Positions 2,638-17,280 of a stretch of 64,000 bases of DNA are shown one piece after another. The notes beneath the pieces were generated by a model. It did not search any database, was not told the DNA's origin, and saw only the letters and a program-made list of their open reading frames with translations. The DNA is taken from assembly GCA_963765575.1 (NCBI GenBank), contig CAVXWZ010000011.1, positions 448,001 through 512,000 of the forward strand. The letters run 5' to 3'. The stretch is from an uncultured cyanobacterium (GTDB lineage Bacteria; Cyanobacteriota; Cyanobacteriia; PCC-6307; Cyanobiaceae). The position numbers were made by a program, and so were the translations under genes. How positions within the stretch are numbered: the stretch's first letter is position 1; every line of letters begins with the position of its first letter.

Positions 2638-3084
2638 TCAGCTCGTGAAGCAGGCCAGATCCATCGCGGCAGGGAGGCCTGGCCGCGGCTGCTCCAGCTT
2701 GCGCAGCAGGCGCCGATCCGCCGTGATCAACGTGGCCTGTTCCTGCTCGGCCAGAGCCACATAGAGGCAGTCGTAGGCAGGGTGAACGAGCTCCCGGCAC
2801 CAGTGGCCGGCCCGGGAAAGAAGCGCCGTGGCGGGAACCAGCAGGTGGAACGGCTCGGCAGCACGGTGGGCCAGCACCTGGAACTGCTCGGTGGTGATCG
2901 CCCCCAGCCGCAGGCTTTTCCAGGCCGTGTTCAGCAGTTCCACCAGCACCAGATCCGGCGCCAGCAGGAGCGTGCCCGGCGTGGCCTCCAGCAGCCGGGC
3001 GGCCTGCTGCGATCCCGGCACCGCGGCGAACCAGCCGAAGGCCACCGAAGCGTCCACCACCCAGGTGTGGGGATCAGCGGCCAT
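2638..3084 (-). CDS. PIN-domain (VapC/FitB-like) toxin
   Basis: PIN motifs VVDASVA, APDLVLVE, YDCLYVALA and LITADRRL; overlaps the upstream antitoxin. Confidence 0.9.
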   Translation of the reverse strand: MAADPHTWVVDASVAFGWFAAVPGSQQAARLLEATPGTLLLAPDLVLVELLNTAWKSLRLGAITTEQFQVLAHRAAEPFHLLVPATALLSRAGHWCRELVHPAYDCLYVALAEQEQATLITADRRLLRKLEQPRPGLPAAMDLACFTS

Positions 3085-3307
3085 CGCGATCGTCGCGGAT
3101 CAGGGCTGCCACGTTGAGACTGCGGCCCGCTTCCGGCGTGGTCGCCCGCAGGCGCGCCAGCTCCTCCCGAAGCGACTCGTCTCCGCGAACGGTAGCTGTG
3201 AGCAGATCGCGCAGGCTCTGTTCCAGGGAGACGCCCTGGGCCCAGGCGCGTGCCCGCAGCGCGGCCAGCACCTGGTCGTCCAGTTGCCGGATCAGCACCT
3301 GAGCCAT
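3074..3307 (-). CDS. FitA-like ribbon-helix-helix antitoxin (77 aa)
   Basis: MAQVLIRQLDDQVLAALRARA...SLEQSLRDLL is a FitA/StbC-type RHH N-terminus; C-terminal LIRDDRD; directly upstream of the PIN toxin. Confidence 0.88.
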   Translation of the reverse strand: MAQVLIRQLDDQVLAALRARAWAQGVSLEQSLRDLLTATVRGDESLREELARLRATTPEAGRSLNVAALIRDDRDGR

Positions 3308-3440: not shown

Positions 3441-4064
3441 GTGTGGATGCCTGCCGTTGTGTTGTTGCTGCGGGCCCGGACTACCCGCCGCTGTTTGCCG
3501 CCCCAGCAGGCGGGATTTTTATTGCCACTGTCGCTGACTGTGGTGCTGTTGTTGATGCTCAGCAGCATGATGCTGCTCACCCTGGCGCTGCAGAGCCGGC
3601 TGCAGGCCGCCGTGCAGCGCCAGCGGCGCCTGGCGGAAGACCAGCTGATCAACGCCGCCCAGCAGTGGGCCGGCCACCTGCAGCGCCACTGCCCGGAAGC
3701 GCTGGCCCATGCCCACGACCGTTGGGACGGGCAGCCCTTGGGCACCGAGCAGGGCTGCGGGGGGCTGGAGGCCGGAGCTGACTACCGGCTGGTGAGCTAT
3801 GCGCCGGGCGGCGACCCCCAGCCGGGCACCGCCCCCGACCAGGGCACCGGCGAACTGGTGCTGGAGCTCAGCGACGCCGAACCCGCCTCGCGCGGCGCCT
3901 TTGCGTTGCACTGGCGGCGGCAGCCAGTTCTCCTGGAGCCCCAGGGCGAGGAAGGTGCCACCACCCTCGGCCCGCCCCAGCTGATGGGCCTGGAGGAGCG
4001 GGGGCTGCGCGCTGCCGCCTCCGCCGCCGCGGCTGGCGCCTCCGAGCTGGAGGTGGGGCCATGA
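3441..4064 (+). CDS. Type IV pilus minor pilin, PilX-like (start uncertain)
   Basis: Prepilin-like QQAG|FLLPLSLTVVLLLMLSS lacking Glu5, as in PilX/GspK; first gene of a translationally coupled four-gene operon. Confidence 0.7.
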   Translation: MWMPAVVLLLRARTTRRCLPPQQAGFLLPLSLTVVLLLMLSSMMLLTLALQSRLQAAVQRQRRLAEDQLINAAQQWAGHLQRHCPEALAHAHDRWDGQPLGTEQGCGGLEAGADYRLVSYAPGGDPQPGTAPDQGTGELVLELSDAEPASRGAFALHWRRQPVLLEPQGEEGATTLGPPQLMGLEERGLRAAASAAAAGASELEVGP

Positions 4065-4408
4065 ACCTGGTGGAAGTGCTGGTGGCCAGCTGCCTGGTGC
4101 TGGGCTCGGCCACGGGGTCGCTGGGCATCTGGGCCCGCACCGTGCACTCCAGCCACGAGGCCGCCGCCCTGCTGCGGCAGCAGCGCCAGGCCGATGAACA
4201 GCTGCTGGCGGTGCAGGCCCAACTGCAGGCCCTGGCCGCCGAGCAACGCGCCAGCGGTGCGCCGGTGCCGGCGGTCTGCCCCGACCTCACAGGCCTGGGC
4301 GTGGAGGGCTCCGGCCCGATCGTCAGCGTGAGCGTGGAGACCGGGGCGGATCAGCGCCGCCAGCGGGTGTTCGACCTGGCGGCCTACGGCCTCTGTGGGG
4401 GGACGTGA
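4061..4408 (+). CDS. Type IV pilus minor pilin, PilV-like
   Basis: MNLVEVLVASCLVLG class III-type helix with Glu5; ATGA overlap with the preceding gene. Confidence 0.7.
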   Translation: MNLVEVLVASCLVLGSATGSLGIWARTVHSSHEAAALLRQQRQADEQLLAVQAQLQALAAEQRASGAPVPAVCPDLTGLGVEGSGPIVSVSVETGADQRRQRVFDLAAYGLCGGT

Positions 4409-4887
4409 TGGGCGTGCGTGTTGATCGCCGCAGCGCTGGCGCCAGCCTGCCGGAGCTGCTGGTGGCGGTGGTGGTGCTGGGGGTGCTGCTGGCGATCGGC
4501 GGCTTCAGCGGGCAGGGCTTTCTGGCCCGGCAGCGGGTGGAGGTGGCGGCCCGCGAGCTGGCGAGCACGATCGAGCGCGAGCGCGATCTGGCCCTGCGCC
4601 ACGGCCGCAGCCGCAGCCTCGCGGTGGAGGGCTCCGGCGGCTTGCTGGCGGCGGCCGCCGTGGCCGGCGGGCGGCTGGAGATCAGCCACAACCTGCCCGA
4701 GCAGCTGCGCTTCACGGCCAACGGCCTGCTGCTCGATGGCGGCACGGTGGTGGTGGAAGGGGCCGGCACCGATCTGCGCCGCTGCCTGGTGATGGCGCTG
4801 CCGATCGGCGTGCTGCGCCTGGGCCGCGACGAGGGATCAGGGGGCGCCGTGAGCGCCAGCACTTGCGTGCGCGACGAGGGGGCGTGA
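4405..4887 (+). CDS. GspH/FimT-family pseudopilin
   Basis: G|ASLPELLVAVVVLGVL prepilin site; ARELASTIERERDLA helix; LRFTANGL...GGTVVV...RRCLVMALPIG C-terminus. Confidence 0.8.
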   Translation: MMGVRVDRRSAGASLPELLVAVVVLGVLLAIGGFSGQGFLARQRVEVAARELASTIERERDLALRHGRSRSLAVEGSGGLLAAAAVAGGRLEISHNLPEQLRFTANGLLLDGGTVVVEGAGTDLRRCLVMALPIGVLRLGRDEGSGGAVSASTCVRDEGA

Positions 4888-5498
4888 TGGGGGCTCTAGG
4901 CCGGAATCGGGGCCAGCGCCGCGATGGCTTCACGCTGGTGGAGCTGCTGGTGACGCTGCTGCTCTCGGGCCTGGTGCTCACCGCCGTGCTGCAGCTGCTG
5001 GTGGGCGACCTGCGCCAGGTGGGCCGGCTGGGCCGCTGGCTGCGGGAGCGGCAGGCGGGCGAGCGCACCCTGGCGCTGCTGCGCGAGGAGCTGCAGCGGG
5101 CCGAATGGGTGAGCCTGGGGGCCGCAGGGGCGCCGCTGCCGGCCGGCTGCGCCCTGGCGGGCCGCGCTCCGGTGCTGCTGCTGCAGGGCCGCACGGCTGG
5201 CGGGACGCCGGCCGCGGTGCTCTACACCTACGGCCCGGCGCCCTCGGCGATCTGGCGCGGGGCGGTGCTGATGCGCTGCGGCCCGGCCTACGGCCTCGAT
5301 GGCGACTGGAGCGAGGGCTCACCGGTGGCGCGGGTGCTGATCGATGCCCTGCCGGCCGCCGGCGGTTTCGCCGTGACCGGCAGCGTGCCGGGGGTGCTGC
5401 GGCTGGAGCTGGAGCGCCAGCTGGCCGATGGCCAGACGATCCGCCAGCAGCAGGTGGCCCTGGGGGCGGGGCCGCCGGCGGCCATGGATCAGCCCTAG
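4887..5498 (+). CDS. Type IV pilus minor pilin, PilW-like
   Basis: RRDG|FTLVELLVTLLL prepilin cleavage/methylation motif; LMRCGPAYGLDG motif; TGATG coupling. Confidence 0.8.
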   Translation: MGALGRNRGQRRDGFTLVELLVTLLLSGLVLTAVLQLLVGDLRQVGRLGRWLRERQAGERTLALLREELQRAEWVSLGAAGAPLPAGCALAGRAPVLLLQGRTAGGTPAAVLYTYGPAPSAIWRGAVLMRCGPAYGLDGDWSEGSPVARVLIDALPAAGGFAVTGSVPGVLRLELERQLADGQTIRQQQVALGAGPPAAMDQP

Positions 5499-5569
5499 AA
5501 GCGGACACAGGCAAAGGACGGCCGCCCCTGCCGGCCAGGTTCCAGGTCTGCTTCCCCCCACTGCGATCA

Positions 5570-5586
5570 CCCCCGGTTCGCGGGGG
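5570..5586. terminator. GC hairpin between convergent genes (possible terminator)
   Basis: CCCCCG-gttcg-CGGGGG inverted repeat; no clear U-tract. Confidence 0.3.
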
Positions 5587-5652
5587 CTGAGGAGGGCTGG
5601 GTGGTGGATGACATCGACGCGGTCATCGAGGCCCTGAGGCTGCGCTGTGACG

Positions 5653-6300
5653 TCAGCCGTCGAAGTCGTGGCAGAGGAAGGAGCCGTCGGGACGGCGCAC
5701 CAGGTTGCCCTGGTAGGCGCCAGTGCGGGCGATGCGGTCCCAGTAATCCATCTTGTCAGTGCCGAAGGTGAACGAGAGCAGCACCACCGGTGGATCACAG
5801 GTTCCCGGTTCGGTGGAGTGGATGAACTTGTCGCCAAAGATGATGCCCTTGCCGATCCGGTAGGGATAACGCCCTTCGCTGCCATCGGTCTTCTTGTAGA
5901 GCAGAGCGGCGGGAGGGTCGCCCAGTTGCAGGGGGGTGATCAGGGTGAAGGCCTGCTGGAGCGTGTCGATCCAGTCTTCGTGGAAGCTGGGGGCCGAGCA
6001 ATGGCTGCGCTGCACCAGGAAGCCGGAGTAGAGCCGCGGGGCGTGCTCGAGATCCAGCAGAGGCCGCACCACCTGGGCGCCGCCGAGATCATCGAACAGC
6101 TGCCGGTAGACGCGGAACATCGCCAGGCTGTTGGGGGAGATCCAGGCGATGTCGCTGTGTCAGGGGGGGTGCAGCACCTGGAAGTCTGCTGATTGCCGAT
6201 ACATCTCCAGGTGGGGCTTCAGACGTTGCAGCTCTCCAGCATCGAGATCCACTTCAAGCACGTTGGCGGCATCGAGCTCGGGGTTGTGGAAGGGGAACAT
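5653..6300 (-). CDS. 2OG-Fe(II) oxygenase-like protein interrupted by one in-frame TGA at 6160-6162
   Basis: ATG at 6300; the two ORFs are in the same frame (...VLHPP*HSDIAWISPNSLAMFRVY...); HxD motif (FHED) and distal His (FIHSTEP). Confidence 0.6.
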
Positions 6301-6310
6301 CGTGGGCGGT

Positions 6311-7838
6311 TCAGCCGGGGAAGACGCCCAGAGCCTGCAGGGCCGGCCAGCGCCCGCCGCTGAAGCGCTCGATCTCCTGCTGCAGCACATCGAGGGGCGG
6401 CTCGGGCCCCAGGGCACTGAGGCCCGCCTGCACGCAGCCGCTGAGCAGCTCGCCGCTGAGCCCCTGGCTGAGGCCAGTGGCCATCAGCTGTTCGCTGGGG
6501 GGCACGGCGACAGCCTGGCCGATGCGGGCTGCGGCGAGGGAGCCGAAGGCCGCGCCCTCGGCGCTGAGCCTGGCGATGGCGCGGTTCACGCCCTGGAAGC
6601 CAGCCAGGGCCTCTCGCCAGCGCCGCCGCGGTCCAGACCCAGCCGGCCGGCGGCCAGCAGCAGTGCCACCTGCACCACGAGGTCTTCCGGCGGCTGCGGG
6701 CATGCCGCCAGCAGCGCGGCCAGGGGCTGGGGCCCGGGCGCCAGGGCCTCCTCCAGTGCCCGGTAGGCCTCCAGGTGGCCGGTGACATCGCCGTAGCTGG
6801 TGGAGAACACATAGGCCTCCAGGGGCGGGGCCTCCTGCGGCCGCACCTGCAGCGCCGCCAGCCGCTCCTCGCGGGCCGAGGCGGTGAGCCGGCATTCCCC
6901 GAGCACGAACAGATCACGGCGGAAGCACTTGTTGGTGGCCAGATCCACGAGCAGCTCGCGTACGCGGGGGTTGGCCTCCTGGCGCAGCACGGCCTGCACC
7001 TGGGGCGGCAGCAAGTGGGGGAAGAGCTCGGAGAGGTGGGCAGAACAGATGTAGCTGAGCTTGTGGGCGGCGCAGCGTTCATGCAGCTGGTGCACGTAGA
7101 GGGGCTGCCAGCCGTCATTGGCGTATTCCTGGCTGAGGTAGAGGGGCGGGAAGCTCTCCAGCAGGTCCAGGTCGTTGCGCAGGCCGGGGCAGGCCTGGGC
7201 CAGGGTGGTGGGGTCGGCCCCGTCGCCCAGCAGCGCCTTGAGGTGGTGGCGGCCCGCTGAATCGGCTGCAGGGCAACGGCGGGATCGCTGCGCCGCCGCT
7301 CCATGCCCACCAGCTGGTGCAGGGCCGTGCGGCCCAGCCAGCCGGGAAAGCAGTTGTAGGAGCAGTAAAACAGGCCGCCGGGACGCAGGCAGGAGGCCGC
7401 GGCTGCAAACAGAGCCTGCTGCACGGGCTCCACCACCCAGGTGGCCACGCCGTGGGCACCGACGTAGTCAAAGCGAGGGGCGCCGCCGGCGGCATCCGCC
7501 AGGGGGTTTGGATCACTGGCGAGGGCGAGCACATCAGCCTCCAGGAAGCGGATGTTGCTGAGCTCCAGAGCGGCGGCGAGGCTTTCGGCCTGAGCGATGT
7601 GGGTGGGCAGGAAATCCACGCCCACGAAGGGTCCTTCAGGATGCAGGGCGGCCAGCAGGCAGAGGCCGTAGCCGGTGCCGCAGCCCAGATCGAGATAGCG
7701 GAAGGGAGCGCCGTCGCTGGGGCGGCCGGGAGCCACCCCCTTCACCAGGGCGGCGAAATCGATCCAGCCCGGCGCCATCTCCCGGTAGTAGCCGCTGGTG
7801 TAGGCGGCATGGGAGTAGTAGCCATGATCCCAGCTCAT
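6311..7838 (-). CDS. Class I SAM-dependent methyltransferase with methyltransferase regulatory domain; several frameshifts
   Basis: MSWDHGY...YTSGYYREMAP, YLDLGCGTGYG, FDYVGAHGVATWV, FYCSYNCFPGW, YLSQEYANDGWQPLY and FRRDLF motifs spread over three frames. Confidence 0.8.
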
Positions 7839-7866
7839 GGCGCGGTGCTCAACGGGGGCGGGGCAT

Positions 7867-7893
7867 AAAAAGGCGGCCGTGGTGCGGCCGCCT
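7867..7893 (-). terminator. Rho-independent terminator downstream of the pilin gene
   Basis: Minus strand AGGCGGCCG-cacca-CGGCCGCC-TTTTT. Confidence 0.8.
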
Positions 7894-7906
7894 CATGGTG
7901 CGGCGC

Positions 7907-8333
7907 TTAGGCAGATGGCCCTGGGCGTTCAGGCGCCGGGGGTGACGGCGCCGTTGGCGTCGATCGAGGCCGCCCAGTACGGGCGTTGGTGCCCTCGCCT
8001 GCCGTCACCGTGTAGGTAGTGTCCAATGCGCAGGCGGAGGTCTGATCTGCACCCTGGTGCGGTCGACGCCGGTCTCGAACTGTCTTCGTCGCCGGTGGCC
8101 AGCAGGGCTGCGCAGTTCTTGGCGGCAGCGGTGGCCGCCACATTGGCGGTGTTCTCGTTGGCACGGCCGATCTGGTTCACGTAGGCGCCATAGCCCACGC
8201 CACCGAGCACGCCCAGGATCACGATCACCACCAGCAGCTCGATCAGGGTGAAGCCCTGGGCCGACTCCGGTCGATGCCGCGCGGGAGTTGAGCAGTTGCA
8301 GCAGCAGCCGCTGCCTGTAGGTGGAGCAGACAT
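7907..8333 (-). CDS. Type IV major-type pilin (PilA-like); frameshifted in leader and C-terminus
   Basis: AQG|FTLIELLVVIVILGVLGGVGY prepilin motif; cyanobacterial-type leader (TYRQRLLLQLLNSR) in an adjacent frame; Ala/Thr/Asn-rich body; followed by a strong terminator. Confidence 0.8.
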
Positions 8334-8451
8334 GGGGAGGGAGGAGCGACTCTACTGATCCAGCGAAGCAAACACGGGGTTCGCTGGGGCAGGCCCTGGC
8401 AGGTGAAGTCACCGAGAGATCGCTGAGATCCGACACAGCCGGCGGGGCCGA

Positions 8452-11400
8452 TCAAGCCCCGTTGGCGGGCCATGGCGAAGAAGGCCTGCTCAAGCTGGTG
8501 GGCAAGATCCTCACCGTCGTACAGGGAACTCGCCAGCACCTGGTGCTGTAGGGCTCAGGCTTCTCGATCCGCAGGCGGGCGACGTCGCCGCTGAGCTGCC
8601 CCACGATCTCGGCGAACTGCGATGGATCGTGGGCGATCCAGTCGTCGTGGCCCAGGGTCTGGAGGATCGAGCAGGTCATCCGGCCCGCGGTGGTGGCGCC
8701 CAGGATGCCCACCACGGGTACCCCCATCGACAGGGCCTCAAAGGTGGTGGTGGCGCCGGCCCAGGGGGTGGCGTCGAGGGCAATGTCGATCCCCTGGTAA
8801 CAGCGCAGGTGCTCCGCGAAGGTGGCGGTGCGATCCAGGAAGTGCAGGCGTGCCGGATTCACTCCTCGGCGCTCCAGCCCCTCGCGGATGCGCAGTCGCG
8901 GAGCCGCGGAATCACTGGAGACGCTTTTGAGGTGCAGCTCGCAAGTGGGGGTGGTTCGCAGTGCTGCGGCCCAGTAGTCGAGTGTTTCCTGGCGCACCTT
9001 GCCGAACTGGTTGAAGGAGCCCAGCACAGGGGCGGACGGGGCTTGCAGGGTGGAGGCGGCAGCGGGCAGTTCCGGTTGGCGGCGGCTGGCCAGCCATAGC
9101 CGGGGCAGGCGCCAGAGCCCTTCCACGTAGTGATCCGCAAGCTCCGGAGCGGCGGTGATCCTGTCGCCGATGAACCAGTCGATCGTGTCCAGGCCGGTGC
9201 TGGCATGGAAGCCGATGTAGTGGCACTGCACCGGGGCGCAACGCTCAGCGAGCAACTCAAGGCCGCTGTTGGTGGTGAATCCGGAGGTTTCCATCAACAC
9301 GTGGTATGAGCGGCTGCGGAGGCGCCGTCGCGCCTCCTGACGATCCACATCGCCCAGCGGAATCACGGCATCCACATGCCTTCGCAGCTGATCGGCCCAG
9401 GGCGTGTGGTGCTCCTTCACCTCGATGAGCTCGATCTCCAGTCGCTGGCGGTTGTAGTGGCGCAAGAAGGGTTCAAGAAACAGGCTCACCACGTGATCCC
9501 CGATCTCGGCAGAGAGAATGCCCACCCTCAAACGGCCCTGCGCGGATGGGAATGTGAGCGCTCTGCTTGGCGTGGACTCGATCGCTGCATCTGAGCGCAC
9601 CTGGCGCCAGTAGCAGCGCAGGTGGCTGAGGTGCCGGGCCACGGCGTCCCTGCCGGAGATCGAGTGCACGAAAGCCAGCGATGGTGAGCATTCCGATTGC
9701 CTTGATCAGCCGCAAGCAGTTCATTAAGTAGCTGTTCGGCTTCGAGGATCTTCCCTGGGTGACACGCAGGGAGATGGTCTGGGCCAGTGCACCGAGGTGC
9801 CGGTTCTCCCCATGCAGCATCTGTGCCCAGATCGCCTCAGCTTCCTCGTGGCGATCAGGGAGATCGCCGAAGATCGAGGCCTTGCGCAGAAGGGCCTCTT
9901 CGTTTCTGGGATCCTGCAGCAGGGCCTGCTCCAGGCTGGCGAGGGCGTTCTCCCGGTCGCCCAGTTCGTCATAGGCGATGGCCAGGTTGGCGTAGTCCGC
10001 CGATTTCCCTTCGGTCGTTGCCAGCAGCAAGCCGAAGTGCAGCACGGCCTGGTGGAGCACCGCTTCGCTGGCCTGGGGCTCACCTCTTTCACGAAGGGCG
10101 AGGCCCAGTTCCACGAGCAGAGCTGGGTCGCTTGGATTCAGCTCCACGGCACGCTGCAGCAGGGCTGTGGCTTCAGAGCTCGAGCCCAGGCTGAGCAGGC
10201 ACTTGGCGAGGTAGTGCAACGAAGTTGGACAGTTGATGCCCAACTGCATCGCCCGCTGGATCAGTCCCTGGGCGGCAGTCCCATCACGAGCCTGCAGCCT
10301 CTGCCAGGCCTGTTTGCTCAGGTTGAGCTGGAATTGATTGCGGATGGCCTGCTCGGGAGATCCCTGGGGCAGGCATGGAAAACGCCGATCCAGCAGCCGG
10401 AGGCGTCTCGCTGCCATGCCCCGCTCTTCACCGCAAAAACCAAGCTCAAGCAGGCGTTCCAGACGTGCCCGGCTGCGCTCGCCCAAGTAGAAGGCGGAAT
10501 AGGCCCCGAGAATTTCGTCGGCTTCCAGGAATCCGGAGAGGAGCCAGTCGGCCAAGCGACCTCCCGGATCAAGTTCGTCGTAGCGCCGCAGCGGCGGCAG
10601 CAACGGATCCTGAAGGTCCAGCGCTTTGTCAGCTTGGAGCGCCGGGATCAGTTGGCCCAGCGAGCGCACGGCCTCGGTGCGCTCCCCCAGCTCCGCTGCC
10701 ACCCGCACCAGGCTGGCCAGCCCGCTGAGCCGCTGGTTGCCGTGGGCCTGCTCACTCAACAGCCTGTAGCTGCGCTGCAGAGCACCCAGGCGACGAGTGA
10801 CCGGCTGGTCAGGGTCCTGGGAATAGGCCCACAGGGCCAGGGGCTCGGCCAGGCGCCGCGTTTCGCTGCCCTGCTGCTGCTCCCACGTGGAGGCAAGGGC
10901 CTGGCCGTAGAGCCGCTGTGTGAGCGCCCGGCACCAGTGATAAGCCTCCAGCCCTGCTGGTTCGGGGGGGGCTGGGCTGGCGGTGGGCACCAGCCAGCCA
11001 TCGGCTTCCAGGGCCGCTGCGCGATCGGGCTTGGCGGCAAAGAGATTGAGCAGGTAGCCATCCACCCCGTCCGCTGGATCGAAGGGCATCAGGGCATTGA
11101 GCCCGGGGACCAGCCGATAGCAGCCGTAACCGAGGGCCTGGAAGCGCTCCACCAGCTCCAGGTGCAGATCGGCGCCGTCCTTGAGCTCAAACATCACCAG
11201 GGGCGAGAGCTCAGCGAAGAAGCGCTGGCCGCCGGCCAGGATGCGCTCTTCCTCGCCTTCGGCGTCGATCTTGAGCAGGTCCACCTGCTGCCAGCCGAAG
11301 CTGTCCAGGCAGGCATCGAGGGTGGTGAGGGGCACCTCTTCCCCTGGGCCCTGCTGCGGGCCCAGGCTGTTGAGTTCCGATTGGCCCGACATCTGCAGCC

Positions 11401-11768
11401 AGGTCGTGCCGGTGTGATCGGAGAGCGCCTGGCGCTCCAGGTGCAGCCAGGCTGGTGCCATTGGCGGCGATGCTGGCTGCCAGCAGAGCGGCGGTGTCGG
11501 AGGCCGGCTCGAAAGCCCACACCTGCCCGCCGGGCCCCACCCGTCGGGCCAGAGAGAGGGCATAGACGCCCATGTTGGCGCCGATGTCCACCACCGTTTG
11601 CCCTGGCTGCACGAGGCGGCGCAGGAACTTGATTTCGTCCTCAAACCAGTCACCCTGTTCCTGCAGCACGTAGGGCGTGATCTGATCAAGCGAATCGGGC
11701 ACCACCACCTGGGTGCCGTCCACGAGGGTGACGGTGAGGGTGGCTTGGGTGCTGGTCATCGGCGGCAC
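8452..11768 (-). CDS. FkbM methyltransferase - TPR - GT41 (O-GlcNAc transferase/SPINDLY-like) fusion, ~1100 aa, about 4 frameshifts; 3' end approximate
   Basis: FkbM: VVDIGANMGVY, WAFEP, TTLD, LLKIDAEGEE. TPRs: ALLQRAVELNPSD, SLEQALLQDPRNEEA. GT41: RLRVGILSAEIGDHVV, APVQCHYIGF, LGSFNQFGKV, DIALDATPWAGATTTFEALSMGVPVV. Shifts near 11460, 9750, 9670 and 8545. Confidence 0.8.
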
Positions 11769-11795
11769 TGGCTTGCTTCGACGCTAGGTCGAAGC

Positions 11796-12687
11796 TCAGC
11801 TTTCAAGAGCGAGATCTGGCCGGCTGAGCAGCACTGAGCCCAGGTAGCACTCCTGCCACTGCGTGCTCTGGCGGCGGTCCAGTTCGCCCAGCAGCAAGGC
11901 CTGCCAGGTCGAAGGCGTCGTAGAGCTCATGCAGCAGGAATGCCGCTGCCTTGAGCTGACGCTCGCTCCACTGCTCGCGGTGGCGGAAATCGCGCACGTA
12001 GATCGCGTCGGCCCAGAGCAGCTGGCTGATGGCGGCGTTGGGATCGGCACCAAGCTGGAGCGGGCGAAAGGGGCGTCCCATGGTGTAGGCGAAGCGCAGA
12101 AAACTGAAGCCCTGCCGGCGCAGCAAGGCATCCACATCGCCGAACAGGGGCTGGCCTTCGTAGAGCTCCACGAATTCCACCTCGCACTGCAGCACCGCCA
12201 CATCCTTCAGGGTTTCGGTGGCGTGCTCCAGCACCATCCGCTCGGCCCCCTGCACATCGAGCTTGAGGAAGTCGGCCGGCCGTGCCTCCTCCAGGTCGTC
12301 GAGCCGGCGGGTGTGCATGGGCACGTCTTTCTCCACCTGCATCAGGTCTCCCAGGGCCGGGAACAGATCAATGGTGGAGCGGGCCGGCGGATAGAGCGAG
12401 GAGGTCATCGGCACGTTGGTGACGTGCAACGTGTGCTCCTGGCCATCGCCCAGCGCCCAGGGCAGGTAGCGGAGCGCGCCGCTCTGGGCGGCCGCCTGCT
12501 GGTTCAGGCGCTCACACTCCTGCGCCAGCGGCTCGAAGCCGATCACCTCGGCGCAGCCTTCCATCGCCCAGCGCACCCAGGGCTCCGGCTCACCCGCCAG
12601 CGCCAGCGCGCCCACATCCAGGCAGCGCAGCGGCCGCTCCAGCTGCAGAAACTCGAACCAGGAGCGAACGGATGGGGCGGACTCCAA
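11796..12687 (-). CDS. FkbM-family methyltransferase; frameshift near 11910
   Basis: CLDVGA, VIGFEP, SSLYPP, TRRLDD, DFLKLDVQGAE, CEVEFVELYEGQPLFGDVD and QLLWADAIY motifs; TTG start inferred. Confidence 0.85.
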
Positions 12688-12750
12688 GCTGCAGCCGGCT
12701 GATTCCCCCAGGATGCTGGGCCTCAGGCACCCCAGCCACAGCCTGCGCCC

Positions 12751-14072
12751 ATGAGTCGCCCCCGTTCCCTGCGCGAGCGCCTGCAGAGCACCACCTTCCT
12801 GGCGGTGCTGGCCGGCTACGGCGTGCTGCTGGTGCTCAACCAGGGCCTGCAGGTGCTGCAGCGCCGGAGCGCCCACGGCCAGTTGGTGGTGGCGGTGCGG
12901 CAGGAGCTGGACAGCCGGCCGGCTGGAGCTGCCCTCCGTTGGTCCGCTGCGCCTGCCCGGTGGTGATGAGGTGAGGTCGGCGGAAGCAGCGCGAGCCGCT
13001 GCGGATCGAGCGGGCGGGGGAGCAGCGCTGGCTGGTGAGTGCCAGCGCTGGGCTGGAGGTGCGCCAGAACATCACCGCCGCCCTGCAGGCCGAGCGCCGC
13101 GGCCAGTGGCTGCTGCTGGCGGTGGCGGGCTTCTCCAGCCTCGTCACCAGCGCCTTGCTGCGGCCGGTGCTGCGTGATGGCCTGCTGGAGCCGCTCACAG
13201 GTGCTCAGCCAGGCCCTGGCCGCCGCCGAGCCCGATGCCGCCCGGCCGGATCTGATCGTGGAGGCCGAGCAGCCCGATCGAGCTGCAGCCGATCGCCCAG
13301 GCCTTCAACGCCCTGCAGCGGCGGCTGGCGGCAGCTGGGAGCAGCAGCGCACCTTCATCGATGGCGTGGCCCACGAGCTGCGCACTCCGCTCACCCTGAT
13401 CAGCGGCAACGCCCAGCGGCTGGAGCGGCTGCTGGCGGCTGCCGGGGCCACGGTCGCCGTGGCGCCCCTGCGGCCGCTGGGCGCGCAGCATCCAGGCCGA
13501 GGCCGACCGCATGACGCGGCTGGTGCGCGATCTGCTCGATCTGGCCCGCCGCGACAGCGGCCGCCTGGAGCTGACGGCCCTGCCCCTCGATGCCGGCGAG
13601 GCCCTGCTGGCGGCCTACGAGCGGCTGGAGAGCCTGGCCGCCGGCCGGCTGCGCTTGCAGGCGCCCCGATGCCGATGCCGATCTGCGCGTGCGCGCCGAC
13701 CCCGATCGGCTCGGCCAGTGCCTCACCAACCTGGTGGAGAACGCCCTCAAGTACGCCCCGGCCCCCACGCCGGTGGAGCTGGCGGTGGAGCGGTGCGGCG
13801 ACACCGTGGTGCTGCACGTGCGCGACCACGGCCCCGGGATTGCCCCCGAGGAGCGCGAGGCCGTGTTTCAGCTGTTCCAGCGCGGTTCGGCCGCGCCGCT
13901 GGCCTCCGTGAGCGGCAGCGGCATCGGCCTGGCGATGGTGCGGCTGCTGATGGAGCGCATGGGCGGCACGGTCCAGGTGGACGATGCCCCGGGGGGCGGC
14001 GCCGACGTTCAGCTGCTGCTGCCGGCGCTGGCGCCCTCCTTGAGCACGAAGCCCACGCCGCGCACGGTGTGA
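12751..14072 (+). CDS. Sensor histidine kinase (TM-HAMP-HisKA-HATPase); multiple frameshifts
   Basis: Two TM segments; HAMP ([16 protein letters not shown]); H-box [17 protein letters not shown]-box [10 protein letters not shown]1 DHGPGI; G2 GSGIGLA. Confidence 0.85.
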
Positions 14073-14774
14073 ATCAGCTTGGCCTCGCCGGGCAGCTCGA
14101 GCTTGCGGCGCAGGTAGCGGATGTACACATCCAGCAGGTTGTCGTCGCCCACGAACGGGCTCGCCCCACACCGCCTCCAGCAGCGCCAGCCGCTCCTGCA
14201 CCCGGTTGGGCTGGCGCAGCAGCTGCAGCAGCAGGTCGTATTCGCGCACGGTGAGCTGGATCGCGCGCCCGCCCCGGCGCACCTCCCGGGCGGCGGTGTT
14301 CACCCTGAGGTCGGCGAACTGCAGCAGCTCGCTGGCCTCCTCGCCGCCACTGCCGGTGCGCCGCAACCGCGCCCGCACCCGCGCCAGCAGCTCCTCGATC
14401 GAAAATGGTTTGGTGAGGTAGTCGTCGGCGCCGGCGTCGAGGGCCTCCACCCGCTCGCTCACCGCGTCGTGGGCGGTGAGCATCAGCACCGGCGTGCTGA
14501 TGCCGCTGCTGCGCAGGCGCCGGCACACCTCCAGGCCGCTGAAATCGGGCAGGGTCCAGTCGAGCAGCACCAGCTCCAGACCGCCGGCGCGGATGCGCGT
14601 CAGCGCCTGCTGGCCCGTGCCCGCCGTGTCCACCCCGTAGCCCTCGGCCTCCAGCTCGCCCTGCAGAAAGCGGCGCAGCTCCGGGTCGTCGTCGACGATC
14701 AGCAGGTTGGATGCTGATGCAGGTGCTGCTGGTGGCGGGGGCGGTGGCATGGCAGTGGGTGACGGCATCGCCAT
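14009..14774 (-). CDS. OmpR-family response regulator; frameshift near 14160
   Basis: [34 protein letters not shown]-terminal [14 protein letters not shown]...[10 protein letters not shown] in the shifted frame ending at TGA 14009-14011. Confidence 0.9.
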
Positions 14775-14821
14775 CCCCAGCTTGATGCCAAGGCAGGCTG
14801 GAGCCCCATGGGCGTGCTGCC

Positions 14822-16684
14822 GTGCTCGAGCAAGCCCTGCAGGCCTTCGGGTGCGGCGATCTGGCCCGGGCGGAAGCGCTGCTCATCCGCCTCTGGCAGC
14901 AGCAGCCCACGTCCGCGGTGGCGGCTCTGCAGGGCCAGGTGCTGCGGGCCGCCGGCCGCTGGGCCGACGCCATCGCCTGGTTTGAGCGGGCCCTGGAAGC
15001 CGACCCCGGCGATGCCCGGCCCCGCCTGGCCATCGGCCAGATCCAGCGCCAGCAGGTGGATGGCGAGGCGGCGCAGTCCAGCTTCGAGCAGGTGGTGCTG
15101 CAGGCCGGGCTGGCGCTGGCCTTCGGGGCGGATCAGCCCCTGCGGCTGCTGGAGCTGGGGCTGGCCTACGCCGAGCTGGAGCAGCCCGATGACGCCATCG
15201 CCGCATTGCAAGCGGCACTTGCTTCAGATCCAGCGCTGGTTGAGGCCCACCAGACCCTGGCCTCGCTGCTGCGGAAGGAGGGCCAGCTGGGGGAGGCGCT
15301 ACGGCATCACGAAGCACTGGCCCGTCTGCAGACCGATCCCCTGGTGGCCCAGGTAGATGTGGCCCAGTGCCAGCAGATGGCGGGTGACCCGGAAGGAGCC
15401 CTGACGGTGCTGGAAGGGCTCCTGGAGCAGGCCGGACCCGACCCCAGGATCACCGGTTCATTCCTGTTCGTGGCCTCCGTTGCCGGGCGGCGCTGGCTGC
15501 AGCGCCGCTGCGAGGTCGCTGACACGCACTGGCGGCTGCTCGGCGCCGGCACCGCGCCCACACCGCGCGGTGGCCAGGTTGCAACACCCCGCCGCCCCCT
15601 GCGCGTGGGGATTCTCAGCGCCGAGCTGGGCACCCACCCTGTGGGCCATTTCCTGGAATCGTTCCTGCGCCATCACGACCGCACCCGGCTGCAGCTGGTG
15701 CTGATCGAAACCCAGCCGCGCTGGGAAGAGCGCAACCGCACCCTGCGCGCCCTGGCGCACGATTCCCTGCTGCTCCCCCAGGCCGATGCGGCGACGCGCC
15801 GCGCATTGATTCGTGAGCGGGGCTACGAGGTGCTCGTGGAGACGAGTGGCTTCACCACCGCCAGTGGTCTGCCGCTGCTGGCCGAACGCCTGGCGCCGGT
15901 GCAGTGCCACTACGTGGGCTTTCACGCCAGCACCCATCTGCCCACGCTCGATTGGTTCATCGCCGATGCGGCGTTGCTGCCGCCGGAGTTGGAGCCCCAG
16001 TTCAGCGAGCGCATCTGGCGGCTGCCCCGCCCCTGGGCGGCCTACAGCCCGCCAGCCGAGCTGCCGCCGGCCATCTCCCTGCCGGCCTCGGCGGCACCGG
16101 TGTTCGGCTCCTGCAACCAGGTGGCCAAGCTGGGGCCCGCAACGCTCAGCTACTGGGCCGCTGCGCTGCGGGCGGTGCCGGAGGCCGAGCTGCTGGTGAA
16201 GCACCGTCACACCGCTGATGCCGGCGTGCGCGAGCGCATCACTACCACCCTGGCGGCCTCTGGGGTAGATCCCGCCCGGCTGCGCTTCGAGGGCTGGGCC
16301 CCCGACTGGGCCGCCCACATGGCCGCCTACAACCGCATCGACCTGGCCCTCGACGCCACCCCCTGGAGCAGCGCCACCACCGCCTTCGAGGCCCTGGCGA
16401 TGGGCACCCCGCTGGTGGCGATCCGCGGCGCCACCCTGGCCGGCCGCATGAGCACCGCGGTGCTGGAGGGCTTCGGCGAGCCGGGCTGGATCGCCAGCGA
16501 CCTCGAGGGCTTTGCAGCGATCGCCCGCGAACTCACGGCCGATCTGCCGGCCCTGCGCGCCGCGCGGGGCGAGCGCCGGCGGCAGGCCCTGGCGGGCCCC
16601 CTGTTCGATGGCGCCGACCTGGCCCGGGCGCTGGGCGAGGCGCTGGAGGGGATGGCCGGTCAGGCCAGCGGCTCCTTCAGTTGA
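14822..16684 (+). CDS. TPR + GT41 O-linked GlcNAc transferase (SPINDLY-like) family protein
   Basis: N-terminal TPRs; RPLRVGILSAELGTHPVG, LAPVQCHYVGF, FGSCNQVAKL and DLALDATPWSSATTAFEALAMGTP motifs; intact 620-aa ORF. Confidence 0.9.
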   Translation: MLEQALQAFGCGDLARAEALLIRLWQQQPTSAVAALQGQVLRAAGRWADAIAWFERALEADPGDARPRLAIGQIQRQQVDGEAAQSSFEQVVLQAGLALAFGADQPLRLLELGLAYAELEQPDDAIAALQAALASDPALVEAHQTLASLLRKEGQLGEALRHHEALARLQTDPLVAQVDVAQCQQMAGDPEGALTVLEGLLEQAGPDPRITGSFLFVASVAGRRWLQRRCEVADTHWRLLGAGTAPTPRGGQVATPRRPLRVGILSAELGTHPVGHFLESFLRHHDRTRLQLVLIETQPRWEERNRTLRALAHDSLLLPQADAATRRALIRERGYEVLVETSGFTTASGLPLLAERLAPVQCHYVGFHASTHLPTLDWFIADAALLPPELEPQFSERIWRLPRPWAAYSPPAELPPAISLPASAAPVFGSCNQVAKLGPATLSYWAAALRAVPEAELLVKHRHTADAGVRERITTTLAASGVDPARLRFEGWAPDWAAHMAAYNRIDLALDATPWSSATTAFEALAMGTPLVAIRGATLAGRMSTAVLEGFGEPGWIASDLEGFAAIARELTADLPALRAARGERRRQALAGPLFDGADLARALGEALEGMAGQASGSFS

Positions 16685-16688
16685 GCGC

Positions 16689-16838
16689 CTACGCACCACC
16701 CGCATGACTGCGCTGGCTGGCGAGTGCCAAGGAGCTGGCCCGGCGCCTGTCGCGGGATTTCGCCCGTTCCAGGCAGCGAGCACCGAATTGGTGACCAACG
16801 ACCAGATCGACCTGCTGCGTGATCAGGCAGGGGTTTGA
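16689..16838 (+). pseudogene. Degenerate VapB/CopG-type antitoxin
   Basis: Residual RTT start motif without ATG; RHH core missing; C-terminus GFRPF...VTNDQIDLLRDQAGV; TGATG coupling to the PIN toxin. Confidence 0.6.
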
Positions 16839-17280
16839 TGCGGGCCCTGCTCGACATCAACGTGATCATCGCTCTGCTGGATCGGGGGCATGTGCTGCAC
16901 GCCGCTGCCCGCCGCTGGATGGAGCGTGAGATCCACCATGGCTGGGCCACCTCCCCGATCACCGAGAACGGCGTGGTTCGTATCCTGTCGCAGCCTGCCT
17001 ATCCCAACCACCGTCCTGTGGCCGTGGTGGCCAGGCGCCTTGCCGAAGCCTGTAGCCACGCCAGCCATGCCTTCTGGCCCGATCCGATCAGCCTGCTGGA
17101 TCCAGGCTTGATCCGCTGGGAGCGGCTCCTGGGACCTCGACAGATCACCGACAGCTACCTGCTGGCGCTCGCCATGGCCCATGGTGGCCGCTTCGTGAGC
17201 TTTGATCAGCGCATCGGCCGGAACTCGTGCCTGGAGCCAGCGCGGCCCACCTGGCAACGATTGCTGTCACCGACGCCTAG
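16838..17280 (+). CDS. VapC-family PIN ribonuclease toxin; frameshift near 17220
   Basis: MRALLDINVIIALLD..H.LH, ITENGVVRILS, QITDSYLLALA, FVSFDQRI; the natural end ELVPGASAAHLATI...* lies in another frame. Confidence 0.85.

Follow-up and report, generated by a model that had tools for sequence, protein, structure and literature searches.

A variable type IV pilin slot with candidate glycosylation and lysine methylation genes in an uncultured picocyanobacterium

The window analysed here, a stretch of 64,000 nucleotides from an uncultured cyanobacterium of the family Cyanobiaceae, holds a major type IV pilin gene among genes for putative modifying enzymes. The question raised by this locus is whether these enzymes form one dedicated pathway, glycosylating the pilin and then methylating or oxidising the sugar, as the initial annotation proposed, or whether they have separate roles and histories. 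The reading favoured here, with a probability of about 0.55, is that of a modular, exchanged pilin slot, in which GT41 glycosylation, FkbM O-methylation and lysine methylation of pilins by a PKMT-type enzyme would be combined.

Gene order and assembly of the locus

All the named genes were found, in the order and orientation given by the initial annotation. On the minus strand, from high to low coordinates, these are a stand-alone FkbM gene, an FkbM-TPR-GT41 fusion, the major pilin, a PF10119 methyltransferase and a gene with a 2OG-Fe(II) oxygenase fold; the plus strand carries four minor-pilin-like ORFs (3441-5498), a histidine kinase (12751-14072) and a TPR-GT41 gene (14822-16684). The features are as follows.

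3441..4064, plus: minor pilin 1, PilX/K-like, no E5 (ORF; 65% to G008 orthologue; no match in a Pfam search)
4061..4408, plus: minor pilin 2, PilV-like (ORF; kept in relatives)
4405..4887, plus: minor pilin 3, FimU/GspH-like (PF07963, TIGR02532)
4863..5498, plus: minor pilin 4, PilW-like (PF07963)
5653..6300, minus: Fe(II)/2OG oxygenase-fold gene, likely a pseudogene in the window allele (HxD...H intact)
6311..7838, minus: predicted PKMT/KmtA-type (PF10119) protein-lysine methyltransferase (frameshifts near 7241 and 6610)
7867..7894, minus: terminator-like hairpin and U-run, 3' of the major pilin (fold z -3.1)
7929..8333, minus: major type IV pilin, GVLGGVGYGAY subtype (PF07963, TIGR02532; frameshifted in the assembly)
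8452..11762, minus: fusion of FkbM, a domain of ~250 aa, TPR and GT41, SPINDLY-like (best PDB match SPINDLY, E 8e-50)
11796..12690 (ends approximate), minus: stand-alone FkbM-family methyltransferase (PF05050 E 6e-18, TIGR01444; 71% to G008)
12751..14072, plus: sensor histidine kinase (PF02518; frameshifted in the assembly)
14036..14774 (start approximate), minus: OmpR-type response regulator (PF00072, PF00486)
14822..16684, plus: second TPR-GT41, intact, 620 aa (PF13844 E 1e-29; His, Lys and DxxPW motifs present)

This grouping is not due to chance, because matches to GT41, FkbM and PF10119 in this genome are confined to the window locus and to a second copy of it, on contig C10. The co-oriented run is common to the window, the C10 copy and the relative G008. 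Frameshifts interrupt several window genes. At 7241, 8551, 9679, 9751 and 11450, the assembly is contradicted by indels in short-read contigs, most of which differ from it by a further 0-2 letters; these five sites coincide with mapped gene breaks, which are therefore likely to be assembly errors. None of the short-read contigs listed covers the pilin break or the break at 6610. In G008, the same cassette reads through without the breaks, and the major pilin orthologue is intact. Given the terminator-like hairpin behind the pilin, which has similar folds in three other copies (G008, C10 and G168), the minus-strand run need not be a single transcript; this hairpin is absent from the terminators listed by the consensus scan, and a promoter scan of the locus found no promoter. 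The histidine kinase is a conserved border of the slot, present in 19 of 27 genus genomes. A role as a defence system was rejected, as the sole PADLOC match is to the SAM domain of mad2, which is generic.

Families of the modifying enzymes

By sequence and modelled structure, the SAM methyltransferase is a member of the PKMT/KmtA family of protein-lysine methyltransferases. The G008 orthologue (509 aa) has a class I SAM domain and a PF10119 regulatory/dimerisation domain, the layout of the OM-PKMT family (about 500-550 aa). The profile match to PKMT1/2 is full-length (E 6e-48, positions 5-506), and the model of the G008 orthologue has the full-length four-domain PKMT1/2 fold, with a Foldseek TM of 0.69 and, in structure comparison, a Z of 29.3 and an rmsd of 4.3 over 445 aligned residues. 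The next structure match is the lysine methyltransferase Rv2067c (Z 22.3), the remainder scoring 17 or less, and the three closest solved structures are all protein-lysine methyltransferases. The AdoMet-binding Asp102 and His146 of PKMT1 (PMC11784438) align with D75 and H129, which are invariant in 66 homologues. Members of this family include Rickettsia PKMT1/PKMT2, which act on OmpB, and KmtA of Acinetobacter Tol 5, which acts on AtaA; the Cyanobacteriota are placed solely in cluster A, the table of which contains the genus Cyanobium (PMC11784438). The window enzyme shares with them its sequence and fold over the full length of about 510 aa, and the AdoMet Asp/His pair, but the substrates of OM-PKMTs are large outer-membrane proteins or adhesins, whereas the gene for the putative window enzyme is tied to type IV pilin operons. 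A literature search found no earlier pilin link for an enzyme of the PKMT/KmtA type. The prediction that this enzyme methylates a pilin is evenly balanced; modelling of a complex of the methyltransferase, the pilin head and SAM gave no answer (score 0.00) and was set aside.

Both GT41 genes encode TPR and two GT41 lobes, with the catalytic Lys and the N-lobe His kept. In G008, the fusion is a single 1102-aa ORF with PF05050, TPR and PF13844; an atlas search with its middle domain of ~250 aa returned unnamed clusters only. Like the Arabidopsis O-fucosyltransferase SPINDLY, the fusion, a bacterial enzyme, has the equivalents of His495, Lys665 and His728 and a bulky aromatic residue, in this case Trp, at the position of Y744, to which SPINDLY work attributes a donor-size rule, whereas Ser496 is replaced by Val or Pro (PMC9715652). 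By this rule the Trp points to a smaller sugar, and the genome has a gmd gene with an fcl-like gene behind it; the GT41 enzymes may use GDP-fucose or another small hexose instead of UDP-GlcNAc. The FkbM genes match PF05050/TIGR01444 above cut-off, and NoeI, a fucose methylase, belongs to the FkbM family. Since FkbM is fused to GT41, we infer that it methylates sugar hydroxyls, and it probably acts on the pilin glycan added by GT41. Other fusion partners of FkbM are a second FkbM (L029) and a PKMT-type enzyme (L066). Speaking against fucose, the Ogt of S. elongatus has been reported with UDP-GlcNAc as donor (PMC9306852). This enzyme (locus Synpcc7942_0051) glycosylates PilA (PMC9306852; review PMC12288463), and GT41 adjoins pilA in 77 of 201 cyanobacterial genomes (PMC9306852). 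GT41 also adjoins the major pilin in the window (the gap is 85 bp in G008), and very probably glycosylates this pilin.

The oxygenase fold is supported by an AF2 model of the G009 homologue (pLDDT 94.6) and by matches to DSBH oxygenases with a Z of about 12; a profile search against PDB sequences gave no match. The HxD...H motif is invariant, as is Asp109 in 38 sequences. In HalD/BesD-type halogenases, Gly or Ala replaces the Asp ligand (HxG/A); this ligand is kept here, HalD being merely an atlas look-alike, and a halogenase of this type was rejected. In the window, a TGA (6160-6162) breaks the reading frame at the place of Trp47, an otherwise invariant residue for which the C10 copy has a Trp codon. 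This TGA is real rather than a sequencing error, because two short-read contigs span the site and agree with the assembly, and the gene is likely to be dead in the window allele. In G009 and G010, the oxygenase accompanies the methyltransferase and GT41 was not found. The 56 metagenome oxygenase loci, many of them short, yielded no pilin motif; a PF10119 gene lies directly upstream in one (L134) and GT41 ~1-2 kb off in two. The oxygenase was thus rejected as a pilin-specific enzyme, as no pilins adjoin its distant homologues; it is a rare add-on travelling with the lysine methyltransferase.

Linkage to pilin operons and exchange between genomes

In a survey of 220 genomes of the family, linkage to pilin genes, the check named in the initial annotation, held for GT41, the FkbM module and the SAM methyltransferase. 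The proposed five-enzyme cassette proved not to be a conserved unit: the methyltransferase was found in 46 genomes, the FkbM module in 15, the oxygenase in six and GT41 in 77, the last by a search at E 1e-13 that overlooks divergent GT41s (examples in L042, L049 and L098). FkbM, FkbM-GT41, pilin, methyltransferase and oxygenase occur together in one of these relatives (G008, in which the oxygenase is truncated and the regulator lacks a second GT41 as its neighbour). In 34 of its 46 carriers, from nine genera, the methyltransferase is no more than 5 kb away from a pilin gene, and in 12 genomes it follows a pilin operon on the same strand within 50 bp, with some junctions overlapping. Minor pilin 4, with an orthologue in 145 of the 220 genomes, served as the neighbourhood anchor; in none of 18 cases did a SAM-methyltransferase paralogue, taken as a control, lie within 20 kb of it. 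The pilin-linked methyltransferase often occurs without GT41 or FkbM, and at the pilin loci of G009, G010 and G071 the GT41 and FkbM module was not found, a statement limited for GT41 to these three genomes because divergent GT41s are overlooked. Most of the unlinked copies fall into two clades of a quick tree (SH-aLRT 100) and lie beside giant Ig/RCC1 or unannotated repeat proteins, which would fit a role like that of KmtA towards AtaA. Outside the family, a pilin was next to the methyltransferase in 0 of 23 loci, all short, and one plasmid homologue (Azospirillum) sits within a glycosyltransferase cluster.

The window major pilin is rich in Ser/Thr, has Lys at mature position 45 and ends in Ala; it is lysine-poor, with one Lys readable in its frames. 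Major pilins have 1-4 lysines (median 2 both with and without a linked methyltransferase; p 0.06 for total Lys against linkage). Lys45 is present in 33 of 34 methyltransferase-linked and 47 of 61 unlinked pilins (naive Fisher p 0.009), an association reduced to p 0.10 after dropping the largest genus (g63) and to p 1 in independent pairs. Major pilins adjoining GT41 are no richer in Ser/Thr (p 0.24); accessory pilins have a Ser/Thr excess (p 0.0001) by a statistic that ignores kinship, and this was not used as evidence.

Alleles vary between and within genera. G168, from another genus, is 73, 64 and 74% identical to G008 in pilin, FkbM-GT41 and methyltransferase, versus 44-49% in the flanking minor pilins, whereas G187, from the same genus, has 28% identity in the pilin, 50% in the methyltransferase and 61-62% in the minor pilins. 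On contig C9 of the window assembly, the pilin is a different one and the block is missing. In relatives, the interval near lepA forms a hot spot in which toxin-antitoxin genes and IS elements have gathered, a setting in which some of the methyltransferase-pilin linkage may be passive.

Competing explanations and known systems

What is established for this locus comprises the gene content, the families of the proteins, the linkage, the variation among alleles and the similarity across genera, and we infer all of the substrates. Under the favoured reading, the variable slot would hold the major pilin and exchangeable modifying genes; the TPR-GT41 enzymes would put a small sugar on pilin Ser/Thr, the FkbM domains would O-methylate this sugar, and the separate PKMT/KmtA-type enzyme would methylate lysine of the pilin proteins themselves. 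A single five-enzyme pathway, with the oxygenase and every methyltransferase working on the GT41 sugar, could draw on the common orientation of the genes in the window, C10 and G008, the fusion of FkbM to a PF10119 enzyme in L066, and the PF10119 homologues among glycosyltransferases on the Azospirillum plasmid and, in the available part of one report, in a Dickeya flagellin island (PMC9650423). It is distinctly unlikely, given that the structures closest to the PF10119 enzyme are all protein-lysine methyltransferases, that this enzyme occurs at pilin loci without GT41 and FkbM, and that the oxygenase, in 6 of 220 genomes, has a nonsense codon here, is truncated in G008, accompanies the methyltransferase with no GT41 found in G009/G010 and has distant homologues away from pilins. 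Of the initial proposal, probable pilin glycosylation by GT41 is kept, as known for adjacent ogt-pilA genes, while sugar tailoring by the PF10119 methyltransferase is improbable and the oxygenase is not a fixed member of a cassette. The roles that it named, in phage or grazer evasion and in sinking, are putative.

The PKMT-type enzyme might instead target other exported proteins (a large PilX/PilY-like tip protein, porins or giant adhesins) and ride the pilin hot spot, with GT41 and FkbM alone modifying the pilin. The known substrates of the family, OmpB and AtaA, are large outer-membrane proteins with many lysines (PMC11784438), major pilins have few lysines, the lysine co-variation test failed, and in many genomes the methyltransferase is the last gene of operons opening with a PilX-like gene of 500-1050 aa. 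This explanation is nevertheless rather improbable: in the window, G008, G028 and G168, the methyltransferase lies behind the major pilin (gap of 94-254 bp in the three intact loci), these loci contain no giant protein gene, and the methyltransferase has moved together with the major pilin between genera. That the genes are unrelated cargo gathered at the insertion hot spot near lepA would agree with the many toxin-antitoxin pairs and IS elements of relatives and with the GC content of the slot (64-70%, slightly below the 72-76% of the flanks), but is very unlikely in view of the 12 genomes in which the junction with a pilin operon is on the same strand and tight or overlapping, the domain fusions and the experimental Ogt-PilA link (PMC9306852).

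A broader version of the slot reading is put forward tentatively, at somewhat below even odds: in picocyanobacteria, enzymes of the PKMT/KmtA type would have been co-opted to methylate lysines of type IV pilins as their dedicated task, and would be the first enzyme family connected with this modification; here they would be joined by SPINDLY-like GT41-FkbM fusions installing an O-methylated deoxyhexose; pilus "serotypes" would be exchanged as cassettes, both inside populations and between genera, and the small oxygenase may act on methyl-lysine. Pili are a main contact surface of picocyanobacteria, and with one defined enzyme family linked in 34 genomes to pilin operons, the question of pilin lysine methylation becomes testable; if true, the substrates of PKMT/KmtA enzymes would extend from outer-membrane adhesins to type IV filaments. 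Lysine trimethylation has been reported for the Synechocystis PCC 6803 pilin (Kim et al. 2011), so that a cyanobacterial pilin can bear methyl-lysine, but the methylated site is a C-terminal Lys, whereas the window pilin ends in Ala; the available parts of accounts of this modification name no enzyme for it.

GT41 beside pilA and GT41 with FkbM in islands at flagellin are already known, and the GT41-pilin part alone is ordinary. The window has in common with cyanobacterial ogt-pilA loci a TPR-GT41 beside the major pilin, with the catalytic Lys kept, and differs in having two GT41s, one fused to FkbM and the domain of ~250 aa, and in adding FkbM, PKMT-type and oxygenase genes; the word "methyltransferase" is absent from the main text of PMC9306852. 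Enterobacterial flagellin islands, in which GT41 and FkbM are known together, resemble it as variable islands beside a filament subunit, with SPINDLY-type GT41, GT41-methyltransferase fusions and FkbM (PMC4875605). The filament is a type IV pilus in the window rather than flagellin, and the window slot, unlike these islands, is devoid of sugar-biosynthesis genes. The flagellin site also hosts islands with a lysine methylase (FliB), whereas the predicted window methylase is of the PKMT type, and genes for glycosylation and lysine methylation, mostly exclusive of each other in flagellin islands (PMC4875605), co-occur in the window.

Organization of the pilin-modification locus

The initial annotation placed FkbM, FkbM-TPR-GT41, a major pilin, a PF10119 SAM methyltransferase and a 2OG-Fe(II) oxygenase in a single minus-strand block, with a second TPR-GT41 nearby, and family scans bore out all of the genes that it named. 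The assembly containing the window contig (C11) comprises 2.7 Mb in 11 contigs, and homologues in public sources are named Cyanobium, Synechococcus and Aphanothece. Many genes of the locus are broken by frameshifts in the assembly and were traced across the breaks by tblastn with intact orthologues; short-read contigs show indels at 7241, 8551, 9679, 9751 and 11450, mostly with 0–2 other letters differing. The counterpart in a relative (G008) is uninterrupted, encoding FkbM (300 aa), FkbM-TPR-GT41 as a single ORF (1102 aa), pilin (136 aa), methyltransferase (509 aa) and then the oxygenase. A terminator-like hairpin lies 3' of the window pilin. The following genes are found at the edges of the locus:

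406–1206: gene between lepA and the minor pilins, no Pfam match
1302–2629: gene between lepA and the minor pilins, no Pfam match (single 425-aa ORF in G008)
2638–3307 (−): PIN/VapC-type toxin-antitoxin genes, of which relatives have many more in the interval
16835–17260 (+): PIN/VapC-type toxin-antitoxin genes, on the other side

The block is bordered by a conserved histidine kinase on one side and a conserved minor-pilin operon on the other, and the content of this slot varies between relatives.

Content of the slot in relatives' genomes
Pilin only: G002, G018, G019
Pilin + methyltransferase + oxygenase: G009, G010
Pilin + GT41 + FkbM-FkbM: G015
FkbM-GT41 + pilin + methyltransferase: G008, G028, G168

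The source assembly itself contains three versions of the entire lepA-pilin region (on contigs C9, C10 and C11), compared over window positions −10000 to 16750 (C11:438170-464753), and these are likely to be alleles of co-binned strains. C10 has the gene set of C11, with about 11–24% substitutions in FkbM and GT41; for the methyltransferase and oxygenase the figure is mostly 0.4–3%, the 5'-terminal bin reaching 7%. C9, with a different pilin and none of the block, also carries a transposase and a trio of ABC exporter-like genes. G168, from another genus, is much closer to G008 in the block (73, 64 and 74% identity for pilin, FkbM-GT41 and methyltransferase, respectively) than in the flanking minor pilins (44–49%), which points to transfer of these three genes as one unit. 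This is a real, modular pilin-modification locus.

A predicted pilin lysine methyltransferase

The main new, testable element of the locus is the methyltransferase, a PKMT/KmtA-type enzyme that is likely to act on pilin lysines. It matches Rickettsia PKMT2 (E 5e-23) and PKMT1 (1e-21), and a 66-sequence profile spans PKMT1 end to end (E 6e-48). Its structural model (pLDDT 94) is closest to PKMT1/2 (TM 0.69, Z 29.3), followed by Rv2067c (Z 22.3) and other methyltransferases (Z ≤17); all three top-matching families act on protein lysine. KmtA methylates the adhesin AtaA, and Cyanobium is listed in its cluster, with no link to pilins made in the sections consulted (PMC11784438). A mostly open literature yielded no published tie between the PF10119/PKMT-type family and pilins, although Fig. 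S4 of PMC9306852 may show such neighbors; a search of PMC13759059 for the term "methyltransferase" was negative.

The expected linkage to pilins holds for this gene. It is present in 46/220 sampled family genomes, and in 34 of these, from nine genera, a copy is no more than 5 kb away from a pilin gene (33 by extracted loci, G077 by coordinates), although these are not 34 events, given the interdependence of kin. In 12 genomes it lies ≤50 bp behind a pilin operon on the same strand. In nine genomes, none of the copies examined was as close as 5 kb to a pilin (a single copy each from G234 and G207 left out; the G108 copy at a contig end), and three fell outside the tally (G026 and G260, short contigs; G064, 3 kb only). 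A paralogous SAM methyltransferase, used as a control, was near the anchor (PilW-like minor pilin 4) in 0/18 genus genomes. The gene occurs in 19/225 genomes from other cyanobacterial families, with a pilin seen in 0/23 loci of about 3 kb; the link, thus, appears to be specific to this family at this range.

Minor or large PilX-like pilins may instead be the substrate, as may a different exported protein. Lysines are few in the major pilins, and Lys45, present in 33/34 pilins of methyltransferase-linked genomes versus 47/61 in others (101 pilins; 168 genomes with a match), showed no retention effect after kinship correction. Pilin methylation is also disfavored by plasmid PF10119 homologues, one within a glycosyltransferase cluster and another within a type VI secretion cluster (L282:6995-8530, inside an operon on an Aureimonas plasmid).

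Most unlinked copies fall into two supported clades, with giant surface-type proteins as neighbors. Those of one clade (876–1546 aa; L011:10449-15086, L063:11085-15449, L064:5051-9229, L065:6712-9339), with no Pfam match in the three scanned, are candidate S-layer or adhesin substrates. At L057–L060, a PKMT-type gene and a TPR-GT41 adjoin giant DUF4347/Ig/RCC1 proteins and may form a second module, one that would glycosylate and methylate a secreted protein.

The oxygenase

The oxygenase is predicted to fold as a 2OG-Fe(II) oxygenase, and its HxD...H triad is invariant; no match stands out in fold comparison. The window copy has a TGA at the invariant Trp47, a real break, as two short-read contigs are unchanged there; the G008 copy lacks its first ~45 codons and that of G010 has an upstream stop. 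The gene occurs in 6/220 family genomes: next to the methyltransferase, in the pilin slot, in G008, G009 and G010, and elsewhere in G083, G233 and G240. G001, outside the sample, has the former arrangement. A pilin was seen in none of 56 metagenome loci with the oxygenase, many of them short. Its distribution follows the lysine methyltransferase, not GT41, which argues against the sugar oxidation initially proposed; action on methyl-lysine is a speculation. An independent pairing is seen at one of the 56 metagenome loci, on a low-GC (34%) contig (L134:2-2137), where the gene immediately preceding the same-family oxygenase encodes a PF10119 methyltransferase. Two small-genome relatives (L070, L071) have the oxygenase amid TPR-sulfotransferase, TPR-2OG oxygenase and FkbM genes.

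Probable glycosylation genes

Both window GT41s retain the catalytic Lys and His. In the PDB, the FkbM-GT41 fusion matches SPINDLY best (E 8e-50), with human OGT behind it (1e-36). At the residue equivalent to SPY Y744 both GT41s carry Trp, a feature tied to donors smaller than GlcNAc (PMC9715652), and gmd is present in the genome with an fcl-like gene after it (assigned by its sequence, not by family scan). These features would suit a smaller donor; the S. elongatus Ogt, reported to put GlcNAc on PilA (PMC9306852), speaks against it. The same source has ogt adjoining a pilin in 77/201 genomes, so the GT41-pilin link is already known. GT41-methyltransferase fusions and FkbM genes are also described in flagellin islands (PMC4875605). 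As for glycosylation, the locus represents a variant of pilin and flagellin islands that are already known.

The FkbM module occurs in 15/220 family genomes, mostly near pilin or GT41 genes; its fusion partners include GT41, another FkbM and the PF10119 enzyme. In all of its fusions it is followed by an unnamed domain (L003:10684-13989, residues ~225-500; window ~10300-11100), for which an atlas search returned hypothetical clusters only. In some genomes, other TPR proteins occupy the pilin-adjacent position (L038:1603-3312, L044:2974-4782, L045:1891-3357), one with a weak GT9 match, and are possible alternative pilin glycosyltransferases.
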